DNA of 64,000 nucleotides from Eledone cirrhosa (Eukaryota). Below are positions 2,726 through 63,750 of this stretch, piece after piece. Position 1 is the first letter of the stretch, and every line of letters begins with the position of its first letter. The notes under the pieces were generated by a model that did not search any database, had not been told where the DNA came from, and saw only the letters and a program-made list of their open reading frames with translations. Made by a program: the position numbers and the translations under genes. The DNA lies in assembly GCA_964016885.1 (NCBI GenBank), contig OZ024756.1, forward strand, positions 33,108,001-33,172,000. The letters run 5' to 3'.

Positions 2726-2846
2726 CACTAACACACACACAAACTTATATCTATATATATATATCACAGAATCAATAACGTTTACCTCATACTATATTTC
2801 TTACTTTAACATATGAATTTTTTTTTTAACGAAAATTATATATATA

Positions 2847-3014
2847 GGGTGTGTGGTAAGGAACCAGATGGACCATAACACACCAGAGTACTTAATGCCT
2901 AGGGTAGTAGAGTGGGTAATATGAAAATGTTTAACCCCAACGGCAGAGCTCACGCCGTTTCGACGGCTATTTCAGTCCAGAAATAGCCGTCGATACGGCA
3001 TGAGCTATAAACGT

Positions 3015-5802: not shown

Positions 5803-5887
<85 letters not shown>

Positions 5888-5888
<1 letters not shown>

Positions 5889-6035
5889 AGATAGAGTGTG
5901 GTAAAAACCAGCTAGACCATAACCCACCAGATTATTCATACTTGCGGTTTTAGAGTCGGTAATATGAAAAGATTCACCCCGACGATGAGCTCCAGCCGTT
6001 TCGACAGCTAGATCCGAACTACAGTTTGGATGTAG

Positions 6036-11271: not shown

Positions 11272-11452
11272 TAACAAAGGAATTGTGGTAAGAAACCAGA
11301 TGGACCATAACGCACCAGAGTACTCAATACTTAGGGTAGTAGAGTGGGAAATAGGAAAAGGTATGACCCCGACAGCAGAGCTCAAGCCGTTTTGACGGCT
11401 AAAATAGCCGTTGAAACGGCTTGAGCTCTGCCGTCAGGGTCATACTTTTTCC

Positions 11453-11453
<1 letters not shown>
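11272..11453 (-). mobile_element. TA-embedded family B with fold-back
   Basis: Arms ggaaaaggtatgaccccgacagcagagctcaagccgttttgacggcta / tagccgttgaaacggcttgagctctgccgtcagggtcatactttttcc. Confidence 0.8.
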
Positions 11454-11499
<46 letters not shown>

Positions 11500-18489: not shown

Positions 18490-18567
<78 letters not shown>

Positions 18568-18570
<3 letters not shown>

Positions 18571-18760
18571 AACGAGTAGGACTCCGACGGCTGAGCTCAA
18601 GCCGTTTCGACGGCTAATTCTGGCGTCCAGAATTAGCCATCGAAACGGCTCGAGCTCAGCCGTTGGGGTCCTACTCGTTCCTATTACCCACTCTACTACT
18701 CTAAGTATTGAGTACTTTGGTGCGGTATGGTCCACATGGTTCCTTACCACATTTCCTTCG

Positions 18761-18763
<3 letters not shown>
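18568..18763 (+). mobile_element. TA-embedded family B, best-preserved fold-back copy
   Basis: Arms of about 55 bp centred on ttctgg-cgt-ccagaa, then tattacccactctactactctaagtattgagtactttggtgcggtatggtcc..ccttcgtta-(TA)n. Confidence 0.85.
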
Positions 18764-18821
<58 letters not shown>

Positions 18822-18824
18822 TAT

Positions 18825-18981
<157 letters not shown>

Positions 18982-18983
18982 GT

Positions 18984-19033
<50 letters not shown>

Positions 19034-20645: not shown

Positions 20646-21545
20646 CTAGCAGCAGTACCCATCGTTGCCTGGGTAGGTAAAATAATATCTGCTTTGATGA
20701 AAAGGTGTTGATCTTAGCGACTGCTTCTCAATGACTCATCTATGGCCACACACAGACCATGCAGGTGACTGATGAAGGGGCACGCTCGAGGAGGGAGTTT
20801 CGAATTTGAGCGAAATCGGTTGAAAAATGTGGGAGCTAGAGCCGAAAAAGTGGAAATTTGAGTCTAAAATTGGTATGTTTTAATATTTAAGCGGCTGCCA
20901 CGCCGTCCCTGAACAACAAATCCAAAATATAAAGCCATTACAGGATGTGCAATGATAAATTCTATTTTGCTTTAAATTTGAATTAAATCGGTGGGAAAAT
21001 GTGGGAGCTAGAGCCGAAAAAGTGGAAATTTGAGTCTAAAATTGGTATGTTTTAATATTTAAGCGGCTGCCACGCCGTCCCTGAACAACAAATCCAAAAT
21101 ATAAAGCCATTACAGGATGTGCAATGATAAATTCTATTTTGCTTTAAATTTGAATTAAATCGGTGGGAAAATGTGGGAGCTAGAGCCGAAAAAGTGGAAA
21201 TTTGAGTCTAAAATTGGTATGTTTTAATATTTAAGCGGCTGCCACGCCGTCCCTGAACAACAAATCCAAAATATAAAGCCATTACAGGATGTGCAATGAT
21301 ACATTCTATTTTGCTTTAAATTTGAATTAAATCGGTGGGAAAATGTGGGAGCTAGAGCCAGAAATCTTATTTTTCGATACCTCAAAAATGGTGACCCTAT
21401 CGATTTTTTCTTCAGAATGACTCCTGAATAAAAGGTCGATACGCTGATACATAGAAAACACTCCCCGATGAGTAATCTTTCAGCCTGTAAAGTTTCATGA
21501 AAATCGGTCAGACATATACACACACATACTTAATTTTATACATAT
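20646..21545 (-). mobile_element. Non-autonomous Helitron
   Basis: Minus-strand 3' end: hairpin taccca/tgggta (20656-20675) then CTAG (20646-20649) followed by T. 5' region tataaaattaagtatgtgtgtgtatatgtctgaccgattttcatgaaacttt is typical of small invertebrate Helitrons. Confidence 0.75.
20813..21359. repeat. 172-bp tandem repeat (~3.2 copies) inside the Helitron
   Basis: gggagctagagcc recurs at 20831, 21003, 21175 and 21347; units are nearly identical. Confidence 0.97.
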
Positions 21546-27716: not shown

Positions 27717-28703
27717 AGTGTGTGTGTTTGTATGTATGAATGTGTATGGATTTTGCGCTCATACGACAGCATGTGTAAGCATGTGTGCCATTGGTTTTAG
27801 TTTTTGTTGTTTTTATTATTTTGAGATCAGTACAATAAATGCAATAAATGATTAAATAAAATCGATCAGGCAAAGGCCCTGTTTTGTATTTGTTCTTGGT
27901 TTCAGATGTCGACAATTTGTGTTAATAATGCGCTTTGGAAATGTCGGAAACGAAAAGAACCGCCCATTAACCTTTCCTCGATGAGAACTCATAGACAACT
28001 TCCCCTCTCCGCCCGAAGATAACTACCATAGATTACAAATAGTCAATTATAAAATACATTCATTTGATGAAAATTAGTTTGTATGCATAATTTTGTAGAT
28101 CTAGGAAAACCAAATGCATAATTAAAACATAAACAAATGACTTGTTTTTTTATTCTCTTTTATTTCCTTAATACAAATCAATATTGTTCGACCAAAACAT
28201 AATTGCACTACGAATTGACATTTTGTTTTCACCAGAAGCTTTGATATAATTGACGGCTAAAAGGAAAAAGAAAATTGTAATGAAAATTTAATTATACCCT
28301 ACTGTTGATAAAATACATTTGAAAAAAGAGACAAAATGAGGGAGAATTAAATAATCAGATACGATGCTCAAATTAACAATAAAAAAAATAAAGACATGCA
28401 TGTGGTTTAAATAATCTATATGTGATATTTGTTGAAACACTGTAGACCGATTAATCTTTGGGTTAGTTTCAAAAATAGCCATCTTTTTTATTAGCTCACA
28501 TGGGAGTCTATTCATATCCAGTTATTCTGCGTGCTTTAACATAGTAGATGGACTTCGCAGTAAACTATTATCCTACTCTGGTAAATGGAGATACAGTGTG
28601 GCTGATTGTTTAGGGAGTTCGCTTTGCAATCATAATGGCTCGATTATCAATGTTTGTGCGTGTGGGAATGAATTTGAGACGTATATATATATATATATAT
28701 ATA

Positions 28704-28845
28704 AAGAGTCAGATCCCCGACGGCTAAGCTCCGGCCGATTCGACAGCTAGATCAGAACTTTTGCTATTAGCCACTCTACTACCCTAACTATCGAGTACTC
28801 TGTGCGTTATGGTCCAACTGGTATCTTACCACACCTTTTTTTGTT
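28704..28845 (+). mobile_element. TA-embedded family B variant (rearranged)
   Basis: ccccgacggctaagctccggccgattcgacagctag (inverted arm) joined to ctattagccactctactaccc..tatggtccaactggtatcttaccacac. Confidence 0.7.
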
Positions 28846-37440: not shown

Positions 37441-37690
<250 letters not shown>

Positions 37691-37700
37691 ATGTTTTCTT

Positions 37701-37741
<41 letters not shown>

Positions 37742-39544: not shown

Positions 39545-40431
39545 CATCGCCAGCAAACCACATTACCCATCCCAGAAATTTGTTATCCCACTTTACACAT
39601 TTACCTCTTGTAAAGATCCTCACATCACCCCAAGCAACCCATACTCCCCATCCCAGAATTTGTTATCCCACTTTACCAATTTACCTCTATAAAGCTTCCT
39701 CACATCACCACAAGCAACCCATACTCCCCATCCCAGAATTTGTTATCCCACTTTACGAATTTACCTCTATAAAGCTTCCTCACATCACCACAAGCAACCC
39801 ATACTCCCCATCCCAGAAATTTGTAATCCCACTTTACAAATTTACCTCTTGTAAAGATCCTCACATCACCACAAGCAACCCATACTCCCCATCCCAGAAT
39901 TTGTTATCCCACTTTACGAATTTACCTCTATAAAGCTTCCTCACATCACCACAAGCAACCCATACTCCCCATCCCAGAAATTTGTAATCCCACTTTACAA
40001 ATTTACCTCTTGTAAAGATCCTCACATCACCACAAGCAACCCATACTCCCCATCCCAGAATGTGTTATCCCACTTTACGAATTTACCTCTATAAAGCTTC
40101 CTCACATCACCACAAGCAACCCATACTCCCCATCCCAGAAATTTGTAATCCCACTTTACAAATTTACCTCTTGTAAAGATCCTCACATCACCACAAGCAA
40201 CCCATACTCCTCATCCCAGAATTTGTTATCCCACTTTACGAATTTACCTCTATAAAGCTTCCTCACATCACCACAAGCAACCCATACTCCCCATCCCAGA
40301 AATTTGTAATCCCACTTTACAAATTTACCTCTTGTAAAGATCCTCACATCACCACAAGCAACCCACACTCCCCATCCCAGAAATTTATTATCCCACTTTA
40401 CGAATTTACCTCTAGTAAGGATTCTCACATC
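39545..40431. repeat. Minisatellite of alternating 80/81-bp units (161-bp higher-order repeat), ~11 units
   Basis: cacatcacc starts at 39621, 39701, 39781, 39862, 39942, 40023, 40103, 40184, 40264 and 40345. Confidence 0.97.
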
Positions 40432-41164
40432 AACGCTACCATTATAACCCTAGTCACCATCACTATTCTTATAATGCACAATATTGCTCTACGACCAACG
40501 TCTCTCTTTCGTTTCCCTCCTCTCACAATTTAAAGTATCTCTTGACACTTTGGGTTTTGTTTCTCTGTTTCTCTATTTGTAATTGTATAATTAAATTCGA
40601 TTTGTTCAATGTTTTCATTATGTATTTTTTTATTTTCCTCCTTCTCCTCCCTTTCTGCGTGTGTATTTCCTGATTTGTTCATTTCAATTAAAAAGAGGAA
40701 ATTTAATATTTTGACAGTTGTTATCAATATATTTAAGGTTACAGTGTTAGGACCGTGAAGTTTGCGTGTCAAATCAATATCCTAATACTAAATACGTAAT
40801 ATTTGTTATTTTATTTAATTAATGATTTCAACTCTATTATTTCTTTTTTGTTTAAAAATTTCCGCTCTGTATCTAATGTTATACATACACTGTCATGCCC
40901 CGAAGATTGTTATGGCTTTATAATTTTTAATATAAAAAAAGATCAATTGTGTTGCTTCATCTTATTCAGAGAATCTTTAAGAAATATTGAACGTTATTTT
41001 ATAGAGAATAATCTTATAAATATGATACATAAGATATATAAACCTATGATTGCTACCGTAATTCTTCTATTTCACCAACTACTATCTATTTATATTGTCG
41101 ATGTGCTTCAGCATAGGGAATAAGTTATTAAAAACGTTTAATTAACCATATGTATTGTACATGT

Positions 41165-45495: not shown

Positions 45496-45647
45496 GTTCG
45501 GATAACAGTTCGGATCTAGCTGTCGTAACAGCCGGAGATAAGCCGTCGAGGTCGTGAATATTTTCATATTACCCAATCTACTACCCCATGTATCGAGTAC
45601 TTTGGTAGGTTATTCTCTACCTGGTTTTACCACACCTACCCTTTCTG
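45496..45647 (+). mobile_element. TA-embedded family B variant
   Basis: ggatctagctgtcgtaacagccggagatagccgtcgaggtc..catattacccaatctactacccc..ctggttttaccacac. Confidence 0.7.
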
Positions 45648-54052: not shown

Positions 54053-54452
54053 TTAGGATAGAACCAGTTTGAAACTGTTTAGACCATTGCTATACGAAGT
54101 ACTCGTTCCTCCTATAAGGAGTCGGGACACGATGGGTGAGTTGTTGTGGTTCCACCATCTGTGTCTGGATCTAGTTGTTGAAACAGTCATAACTCAGCCG
54201 TAGGGTATTGTTGATAAATGAAACAAAACAAAGCCCAAAAATGCTAAAGTACACAGTTATATTAGGTTTACAATTGGAGGAAGTGGATAAGGGCTCATCG
54301 TTGCGGACAGAAGTTCCTCTTCAGGATATTTCGGATAAGGAAAAAAGTGATGGACGTATGAGTTGTCTGAATCGGTCAGGATATTTGTGTATATATATAT
54401 ATGTTTGTGTATATATATATATATTTGTGTATATATATATATATATATATAT

Positions 54453-61089: not shown

Positions 61090-61092
<3 letters not shown>

Positions 61093-61139
61093 TTAGCCGT
61101 CGAAACAGCTTGAGCTCAGCTGTCGGGGTCTTACTGGTT

Positions 61140-61142
<3 letters not shown>
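61090..61142 (+). mobile_element. Family B micro-fragment (HHR 3' half)
   Basis: gaattagccgtcGAAAcagcttgagctcagctGTCggggtc in (TA)n. Confidence 0.75.
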
Positions 61143-61224
<82 letters not shown>

Positions 61225-63517: not shown

Positions 63518-63706
63518 TAACGAAGGAATTGTGGTAAGTAACCAGGTGGACCATAACGCACCACCATACTCGATACTGGGTAGTAGAGTGGGTAATAAGA
63601 AAAGAGTCAGGACCCCGATGACTGAGCTCCGACCGTTTCGACAACTAGGTCTGAACTAGCTGTCGAAAAGGCCAGAGTCAGACGTCGGGGTCTTCACGCT
63701 TTTCCT

Positions 63707-63750
<44 letters not shown>
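63518..63750 (-). mobile_element. TA-embedded family B variant with fold-back
   Basis: aacgaaggaattgtggtaag..gaccccgatgactgagctccgaccgtttcgacaactag / ctagctgtcgaaaaggccagagtcagacgtcggggtc. Confidence 0.8.

Follow-up and report, generated by a model that had tools for sequence, protein, structure and literature searches.

Penelope-like elements (PLEs) are known to leave insertions with an inverted copy and a one-sided tail, and a canonical hammerhead near the 3′ end has been described as an observed trait of the Hydra clade of PLEs, not as part of the definition of the clade (Craig et al. 2021, PMC8557442). Purified Poseidon PAc from Anolis cuts and extends both strands, and two internal starts bound the tail (Frangieh et al. 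2024, PMC11167929). A U3-A8 pair is a natural covariation in the hammerheads of the Schistosoma PLE Cercyon (Cervera and De la Pena 2014, PMC4209133), while the ribozyme of D. virilis Penelope lies wholly within the transcript because the start is located upstream of the intron (Schostak et al. 2008, PMC2377424). The route to inverted one-tailed insertions and the in vivo role of the hammerhead are stated to be open in PMC8557442 and PMC11167929.

In this study, a repeat designated family B was analyzed in a stretch of 64,000 nucleotides from Eledone cirrhosa (the window), which is part of a 3.0-Gb genome, has 29% GC and is rich in (TA)n. Element positions are counted from +1, the A of AGTCC (L221:4848); for the tail arm of the copy at 18568, the window position equals 18623 + n. 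A blast search of 464 kb, consisting of the window, 200 kb of neighbouring sequence and 200 kb of spread stretches, gave 28 family B copies. By exact-pattern search, at least 31,748 exact tail ends and at least 27,871 arms reaching +1 were counted genome-wide, both numbers being lower bounds for the younger subfamily. The family comprises tens of thousands of copies, which are located in (TA)n. The features of the copy at 18568 and the other copies in the window are:

18523..18568, no strand: left (TA)n target tract
18567..18623, minus strand: tail-less arm (element +4..+60) whose TCCTA end lies in the left (TA)n tract
18624, no strand: one filler base at the head-to-head joint (0-29 nt of filler across 57 mirrored rows)
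18625..18763, plus strand: tail-bearing arm (element +2..+140) whose TTCGTTA end lies in the right (TA)n tract
18632..18641, plus strand: stem II 3′ strand of the predicted hammerhead, +9..+18; this copy lacks the natural partner strand, and G+16 is changed to A in the tail arm
18642..18664, plus strand: GAA core half, stem III (+22..+26 with +36..+40) and H17 (+41), which is T here and C in the family
between 18664 and 18665, plus strand: cut predicted from the hammerhead fold
18665..18669, plus strand: stem I 3′ strand, GGGGT, +42..+46; +42 is the minor 5′-end cluster of the family
18684..18763, plus strand: PLE "tail" of 80 nt between the two fixed 3′ ends
18690..18713, plus strand: hairpin H1, +67..+90, 6 nt past the +60 end and followed by ACTTT
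18762..19030, no strand: right (TA)n target tract
2846..3007, minus strand: family copy with tail arm on minus and a mirror arm (nhmmer)
5887..6024, minus strand: older-subfamily copy beginning at its own +1 (AGTTC), with a very short mirror
11272..11455, minus strand: family copy with tail arm on minus and a mirror arm
28701..28837, plus strand: older-subfamily copy with barely overlapping arms, the tail-less arm from +1 and the tail arm from about +45 to +55
37548..37707, minus strand: family copy whose tail arm extends about 20 nt into loop II, or stub plus filler; 6-nt mirror stub
45506..45639, plus strand: older-subfamily copy without mirror, beginning at +1
54163..54205, plus strand: weak, decayed older-subfamily piece without mirror (E 7e-4)
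61090..61144, plus strand: lone tail-less arm, +7..+60
63518..63709, minus strand: older-subfamily copy with mirror arm

A previous sequence-only reading had listed about ten copies of the family, and the repeat was present at all ten places, nine being strong and that at 54165 weak (E 7e-4). Also found was the hammerhead 3′ half that it had described, comprising the 3′ strand of stem II, GAAA, stem III, GTC and GGGGT, and arm length varies from copy to copy as it had stated. The upstream core, reported as missing, was indeed not found in the window copies: a profile with 60 upstream bases matched at most to column 37 of 200, at 37549. The inversion axis had been placed always at stem II; arms on both strands were detected by nhmmer in only five of the ten (2847, 11272, 18568, 28704, 63518); at 5888 there is a very short mirror, at 37549 a 6-nt stub, and at 45496, 54165 and 61090 none. 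The arms at 18568 meet at 18623/18625 (+4/+2), while the tagccgtc strand of stem II occupies +11..+18; the axis is in loop II, some 10 nt to the 5′ side of this strand. The gacggcta that had been taken for the stem II partner is the mirror arm, the natural partner G(A/C/T)TCGGCTA being located 33 nt further upstream. Rfam gave no match in the window at the gathering threshold. The window further contains two tandem repeats, one at 20813-21364 (172 bp x 3.2, 98% matches) and one at 39552-40432 (161 bp x 5.5, 95%).

Long copies were found by searching up- and downstream of the stump. Their order is endonuclease end, 3′ UTR, GGAATTACCCC, core, stem II 5′ strand, loop II (about 33 nt), +1 to +140, TCTAGCTCC and onward to an ATG at +232. 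The 5′ half matched 5,811 places and the extension past the tail 171. Longer copies, which had been supposed to be rare, are thus not rare; CTGANGA, which they had been expected to carry, is not what they carry. At locus L221, a pseudo-LTR, an ORF and a second pseudo-LTR follow each other, the period being 3,118 bp, and the ORF (L221:5079-7235) is unbroken over 719 aa. This single ORF combines a reverse transcriptase (RT; YRDD at 348) with a C-terminal GIY-YIG endonuclease (YIG at 606). It contains RLRWR at 35, with R for the K of RWK, DKT at 117 in place of DKG, the CxCx5C linker CNCPDRSIC at 572, CNLC (CxxC) at 670 and CKH (CxH) at 698, while an internal CCHH was judged by eye to be absent. 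Among 7,996 scored candidates, 2,054 were homologues, mostly of about 700 aa and about 40% identical, and the top homologue carries PF01541. Despite these 2,054 homologues, Pfam-A gave no family for the 719-aa ORF up to E 1; by tblastn, the ORF had no match in the window.

The parent has a single-ORF RT/GIY-YIG architecture, the RW(K/R) and DKT motifs, the linker and endonuclease motifs and insertion in (TA)n, all of which match the Hydra clade; the unit of 3,118 bp is slightly longer than the "generally <3 kb" given for this clade in PMC8557442. Judged from these sequence features, family B is almost certainly the 60- and 140-base end (pseudo-LTR) of a Hydra-type PLE inserted in (TA)n. The sequence-only reading was right in regarding the repeat as a retroelement end with the 3′ half of a type I hammerhead instead of a MITE, as the ACCCC stem I partner, the core and a strand that pairs with stem II are present in the long copies, and compensatory changes occur. 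A MITE with fixed terminal inverted repeats was rejected since the arms end at +60 versus +140, the joints vary and the parent is a retroelement. An animal non-LTR retrozyme, which consists of tandem non-coding units with a whole hammerhead, was also rejected: the stumps are single and core-less, the parent is coding, and the arrays at L191 and L224 are core-less, too. Two other open frames adjoin family B long copies, a 532-aa frame for a different PLE-like RT (L230:1-1596, minus strand) and a 396-aa LINE-type RT frame (L221:988-2175, minus strand), both assigned by eye.

The three stems around the core and the open helix I that define a type I hammerhead are present in the long copies only, the stumps holding the 3′ half. 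The three-way junction is the minimum free energy fold of the long sequence, although the hammerhead region folds no better than shuffled sequences (z -0.02). In 16 natural copies of both subfamilies, 91% of the cells are paired, and a two-sided change occurs in five of 20 pairs. None of 500 shuffles reached the pairing level of this alignment, a result which relatedness alone can produce; as the changes mostly separate the two subfamilies, the covariation evidence consists of few events. The core was TTGANAA (U3-A8) at 24 of 30 loci, CTGAGAA with a C3.A8 mismatch at five and different at one; among 55 long copies the respective numbers were 40, 14 and one. G8 was found in 35 places genome-wide, five of which have CTGANGA (C3-G8). 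In the older subfamily, two of three long copies have TTGATAA and one CTGAGGA, a fourth match being due to chance. According to these sequences, the long copies carry a predicted whole type I hammerhead with a paired U3-A8 core. Of the gacccc-CTGANGA that had been predicted for longer copies, the ACCCC stem I partner and a core at this place were found, while the core itself reads TTGANAA. A literal search for CTGANGA, as had been proposed, would for this reason have wrongly refuted the ribozyme.

CTGANGA at a distance of 4-30 nt from the stem II strand was rejected as the core: among 38 matches, the 30 that were viewed had no common upstream sequence and were located in joint filler or captured DNA. 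Of 41 CTGANGA matches 22-52 nt upstream, a handful lay in long copies and represent rare G8 mutants. Long copies of the CTACTCGT and ATACTTGT subfamilies (e.g. L215, L220, L205) mostly have the C3.A8 mismatched core and are nevertheless widely amplified. GAAA plus stem III was recurrently deleted between the AGCCGTC repeats at +12..+18 and +35..+41, in 15 of 100 rows of a sample described below (e.g. L360, L387, L403), which may reflect a polymerase skipping the hairpin.

The samples used for the breakpoint analysis come from the beginning of one contig and consist of young copies found by exact match. A sample of 90 arms was taken from the first 100 tail-anchored places on contig C1; ten of these arms read through into loop II (nine found by script, plus L255, which the script had scored as truncated), and the 80 others are truncated tail arms. 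A mirror arm at most 45 nt away was present in 57 rows, namely 55 tail-plus-short copies and two rows of one tail-plus-tail insertion; the script overlooked a few insertions, e.g. L247 and L328. By alignment, the tail-less arm ended at +58..+63 in 54 of the 55 tail-plus-short copies. The 3′ ends are fixed at +60 and +140, and each has 2-3 nt matching (TA)n. A hairpin follows each end: H1 in the tail, and H2 (+145..+166), which lies 4 nt past the +140 end and is present in long copies only. Both have a 4-bp stem, a 2-nt 3′ bulge, a second 4-bp stem and ACTTT in common, with differing bases that still pair. A descriptor of this hairpin matched exactly twice in the 3,118-nt unit (H1, H2) and never in 300 shuffles; having been derived from H1 and H2 themselves, it demonstrates rarity, not function. 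The enzyme would bind H1 and H2, cut both (TA)n strands and prime at +60 and +140 with 2-3 nt of TA pairing.

The very high copy number and the fixed length of 140 nt would also suit an independent short non-autonomous family, SINE- or MITE-like, amplified from short masters. Against such an origin, which we regard as very improbable, there is a separate long parent for each variant at +48..+55, the joint is different in almost all copies, and the stumps have neither hairpin H2 nor fixed terminal inverted repeats.

For the origin of the head-to-head arms, the sequence-only reading had proposed that the cDNA folds back on stem II of the ribozyme and self-primes the second strand. The mirror strand gacggcta does resemble the true partner G(A/C/T)TCGGCTA, and the axis is near stem II. 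However, the joint predicted by this model, in which loop II is kept, had no match in the genome. The furthest 5′ point of either arm was at or before +7 in 48 of the 55 mirrored copies and within +11..+18 in three, and long insertions have the same one-tail architecture with an axis hundreds to thousands of bases away. The tail-less arm extended at least 10 nt further 5′ than the tail arm in 15 of the 55 copies, the opposite being true for four (p 0.02); a fold-back on stem II cannot yield a tail-less arm longer than its partner. As the main route it is refuted, and we give it practically no credence in any role. The clustering of breakpoints, for which a check had been suggested, was nevertheless confirmed: 43 of the 80 truncated tail arms begin at +1..+8 (p 1e-28 versus a uniform distribution).

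In seven of the 55 copies, the arm pairs are non-overlapping or merely abutting, and at L221 the tail-less arm is about 5 kb long and its partner about 0.7 kb. The same +48..+55 variant was present on both arms in 34 of 41 cases versus 8.9 expected by shuffling. The joints contain 0-29 nt of filler, A/T runs, templated repeats and pieces of other PLE ORFs. Unequal and non-overlapping arms together with shared variants fit two cDNAs that were made from one RNA species and joined at their 3′ ends. The hairpin is likely the product of two separately target-primed cDNAs (twin priming), and a part of the arm asymmetry could come from later deletion at palindrome centres. At L033, L060, L032, L038 and L053, tail-less arms continue into fragments of other PLE families, either GIY-YIG coding sequence or palindromic termini, and one of them has a CTGA(A/T)GAGGTCACAG motif.

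A single cDNA reaching +1 might instead snap back on its extreme 3′ end and be copied as DNA, with the endonuclease resolving the product at +60 and unequal arms arising by later deletions of the centre. This would account for subfamily and even private variants common to both arms (L315, L342) and for the many near-symmetric joints with no filler, and Craig et al. (PMC8557442) ascribed the tail to endonuclease resolution. It is improbable in view of tail-less arms that are kilobases longer than their partner (L221, L252), of insertions with +42 as the end of both arms and extra bases in between (L373/374, L408/409) and of foreign PLE sequence captured between or behind the arms (L033, L060), as well as of the two-start result obtained in vitro (PMC11167929).

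The cluster at +1 lies inside loop II. Six direct tandem jumps lead onto +1 to about -2 (L153, L191, L193, L212, L214, L216), and others onto -21 (L224) and about -56 (L196), all at loci chosen for their 3′ extension. In the older subfamily, loop II is GC-rich and unrelated, yet TYAGT is retained; six of 13 copies match to their own +1, two of them extending further. A cap-copying signal, i.e. an excess of G at -1, was not present among 85 cases (G 11, T 47, C 25, A 2), and the exact 5′ end is uncertain between -3 and +1 because TTT is frequent. TCAGT and TTAGT represent the insect initiator consensus. For human promoters with an initiator and downstream elements, tcagtc or ttagtc and the key positions G+24, G+28 and G+29 are listed in PMC8384218 (Table 1). 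All three G residues are present in the older and two in the younger subfamily; these bases are also fixed by stem III, and the downstream promoter match is weak. On sequence grounds, we consider it rather likely that +1 (TYA+1GT) is a transcription start inside loop II that splits the ribozyme. Such a start would explain the missing core half and the surviving GUC site in most stumps. In the open-access literature searched, there was no report of a start site within a PLE hammerhead or of family B itself.

Twin priming might also be combined with a different cause of the +1 boundary, namely stalling or drop-off of the RT in loop II of a read-through RNA, due to a tertiary fold, a bound protein or an A/U run, or an end made by a nuclease. 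The absent cap-G signal would be in line with this, as would the copies that end between -25 and -1 (L020, L028, L099, L338 and the window copy at 37549). We nonetheless regard it as unlikely: the RT would stop after having passed stems III and II, in a loop which is alike between the subfamilies only at TYAGT; the tandem jumps and A-rich additions at +1 resemble those at an RNA end; and read-through RNA would contain the whole ribozyme. Two other sources of the +1 end were rejected. A 3′ splice site at TYAG is contradicted by an AG kept in only 20 of 57 rows and by the lack of a constant upstream exon joined to it, and no hammerhead geometry puts a cut at this position.

Tandem units occur in some arms. 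One arm at L191/L192 contains three 257-nt units (+1..+255). At L224:3440-5230 (G000:C3, about 214.146-214.148 Mb), the tail-less arm consists of six units of -21..+252, which are core-less and alternate in length between 273 and 274 nt; their variants alternate as well, as would be expected of copying from a dimeric circle of 547 nt.

For the minor cluster, copies intact from +46 but not at +30..+32 were collected, and the first 100 of 2,781 matches were examined. From these, 44 rows were set aside: 17 in which the arm was intact apart from an indel or substitution, 15 with a deletion between AGCCGTC repeats and 12 with a stem III microhomology joint. Of the 56 truncated arms left, 18 start at +42, 12 at +41, four at +43 and three at +40. 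Ten insertions that were listed twice were each counted once. In 11 of the 12 "+41" arms, the C is supplied by the partner arm. On the basis of insertions, 14 of 46 were at +42 versus one in 14 expected (p 2e-6; p 0.003 if only +40..+44 is considered). The independent 90-arm sample showed the same tendency, with five of the 36 other truncations at +41..+43 (p 0.003), a tally from which L342 was excluded as an internal deletion. In several insertions, among them L373/374 and L408/409, both arms end at +42 with few added bases between them, and tandem jumps to +41/+42 occur at L148, L199 and L207. The base +42 is the first after the predicted cut, whereas ends at +41 would be expected from stalling at the foot of stem III. 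The pure U3-A8 subfamilies showed no enrichment of +42 ends (12:9 versus 29:40, p 0.32), and many +42 cases belong to a subfamily in which most long copies (8 of 11) have the C3.A8 mismatch. The +42 cluster probably results from self-cleavage by the predicted ribozyme.

Our main reading, to which we assign a probability of roughly 0.6, is that the pseudo-LTR stumps are two cDNAs that are primed at two fixed sites and extend to the true 5′ end of an RNA, most frequently a likely transcription start inside loop II. Both cDNAs would be copied from the same RNA or RNA species. The common template would start at +1, lack the UUGANAA half and hence be unable to cut itself, which would account for stumps that have an intact GUC site but no core. 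Read-through or tandem RNA would hold the whole ribozyme, giving the +42 class when cut and long copies when uncut or circular. The 3′ ends of the cDNAs would finally be end-joined with trimming, A-rich additions and templated filler. Taken together, these steps allow a joint interpretation that we put forward tentatively, at slightly less than even odds: with the start inside loop II, one and the same sequence would yield an inactive half of the ribozyme where the mRNA begins and the complete ribozyme where it ends, the RT-start hairpins, being present only at the mRNA 5′ end, would turn most transpositions into stumps of 60/140 bases, and a few percent of the arms would record U3-A8 cutting in the germ line.

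Family B offers an intact ORF, two base-exact start sites, two copies of a hairpin that is a candidate for RNA recognition, and a pair of predicted 5′ ends of the RNA, and with these defined parts each transposition step becomes directly testable. Also, CTGANGA searches and a Pfam scan both miss an element of this abundance, and stumps shaped like these hairpins may be misread as MITEs. In LINE-1 twin priming, two primers on one RNA reportedly lead to an inverted 5′ part. Family B resembles this in the occurrence of non-overlapping arms (7/55), and differs in having a fixed second site and arms that mostly overlap, which means that the same stretch is copied twice.

The Hydra-type PLE kind and the insertion shape are already known. 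New are the occurrence of a U3-A8 long-loop hammerhead in the Hydra clade, the main 5′ boundary in loop II and a peak at the predicted cleavage site of a U3-A8 ribozyme. Repbase or Dfam may already contain the family, and related families could be included in the supplements of bioRxiv 10.64898/2026.07.22.740005. With the Hydra-clade PLEs of Craig et al. (PMC8557442), the parent shares the single ORF with RT and GIY-YIG, the RW(K/R), DKT, CxCx5C, CxxC and CxH motifs, the (TA)n target, the 3′ hammerhead, the inverted 5′-truncated copy and the one-sided tail. The Hydra hammerheads in File S2 of that paper all have CTGANGA and a loop II of 3-10 nt, whereas family B has U3-A8, a stem III of 5 bp and a loop of about 33 nt, in which the main 5′ boundary lies; its tail comprises 80 nt versus 30-40 in the clade (PMC8557442). 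Compared by eye, its hammerhead also differs from that of Hydra-1_Obim. Like Cercyon (PMC4209133), family B has U3-A8 in its pseudo-LTRs, a long stem II with unpaired bases at its 5′ end, G10.1-C11.1 and paired motifs on opposite strands, although the Cercyon hammerheads are minimal and without stem III, which family B possesses. D. virilis Penelope (PMC2377424) likewise has a TATA-less, Inr-type promoter in the pseudo-LTR that drives the downstream copy, the corresponding start in family B being predicted; in Penelope, 46 bp separate the start from a downstream intron, which reaches helix I at its 3′ end, while the putative start of family B is inside the ribozyme. An AT-rich target, two starts bounding the tail and a hammerhead upstream of the starts are shared with PAc (PMC11167929), as would be the cutting and extension of both strands that is proposed here. 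The start of PAc lies in an AC-rich stem-loop inside the ORF, whereas the sites of family B are in the 5′ UTR, each followed by one of the twin hairpins. Finally, according to PMC11167929, cleavage was not needed for PAc and no RNA reads began at the cut site, while in family B the genomic arms are enriched at the predicted cut.
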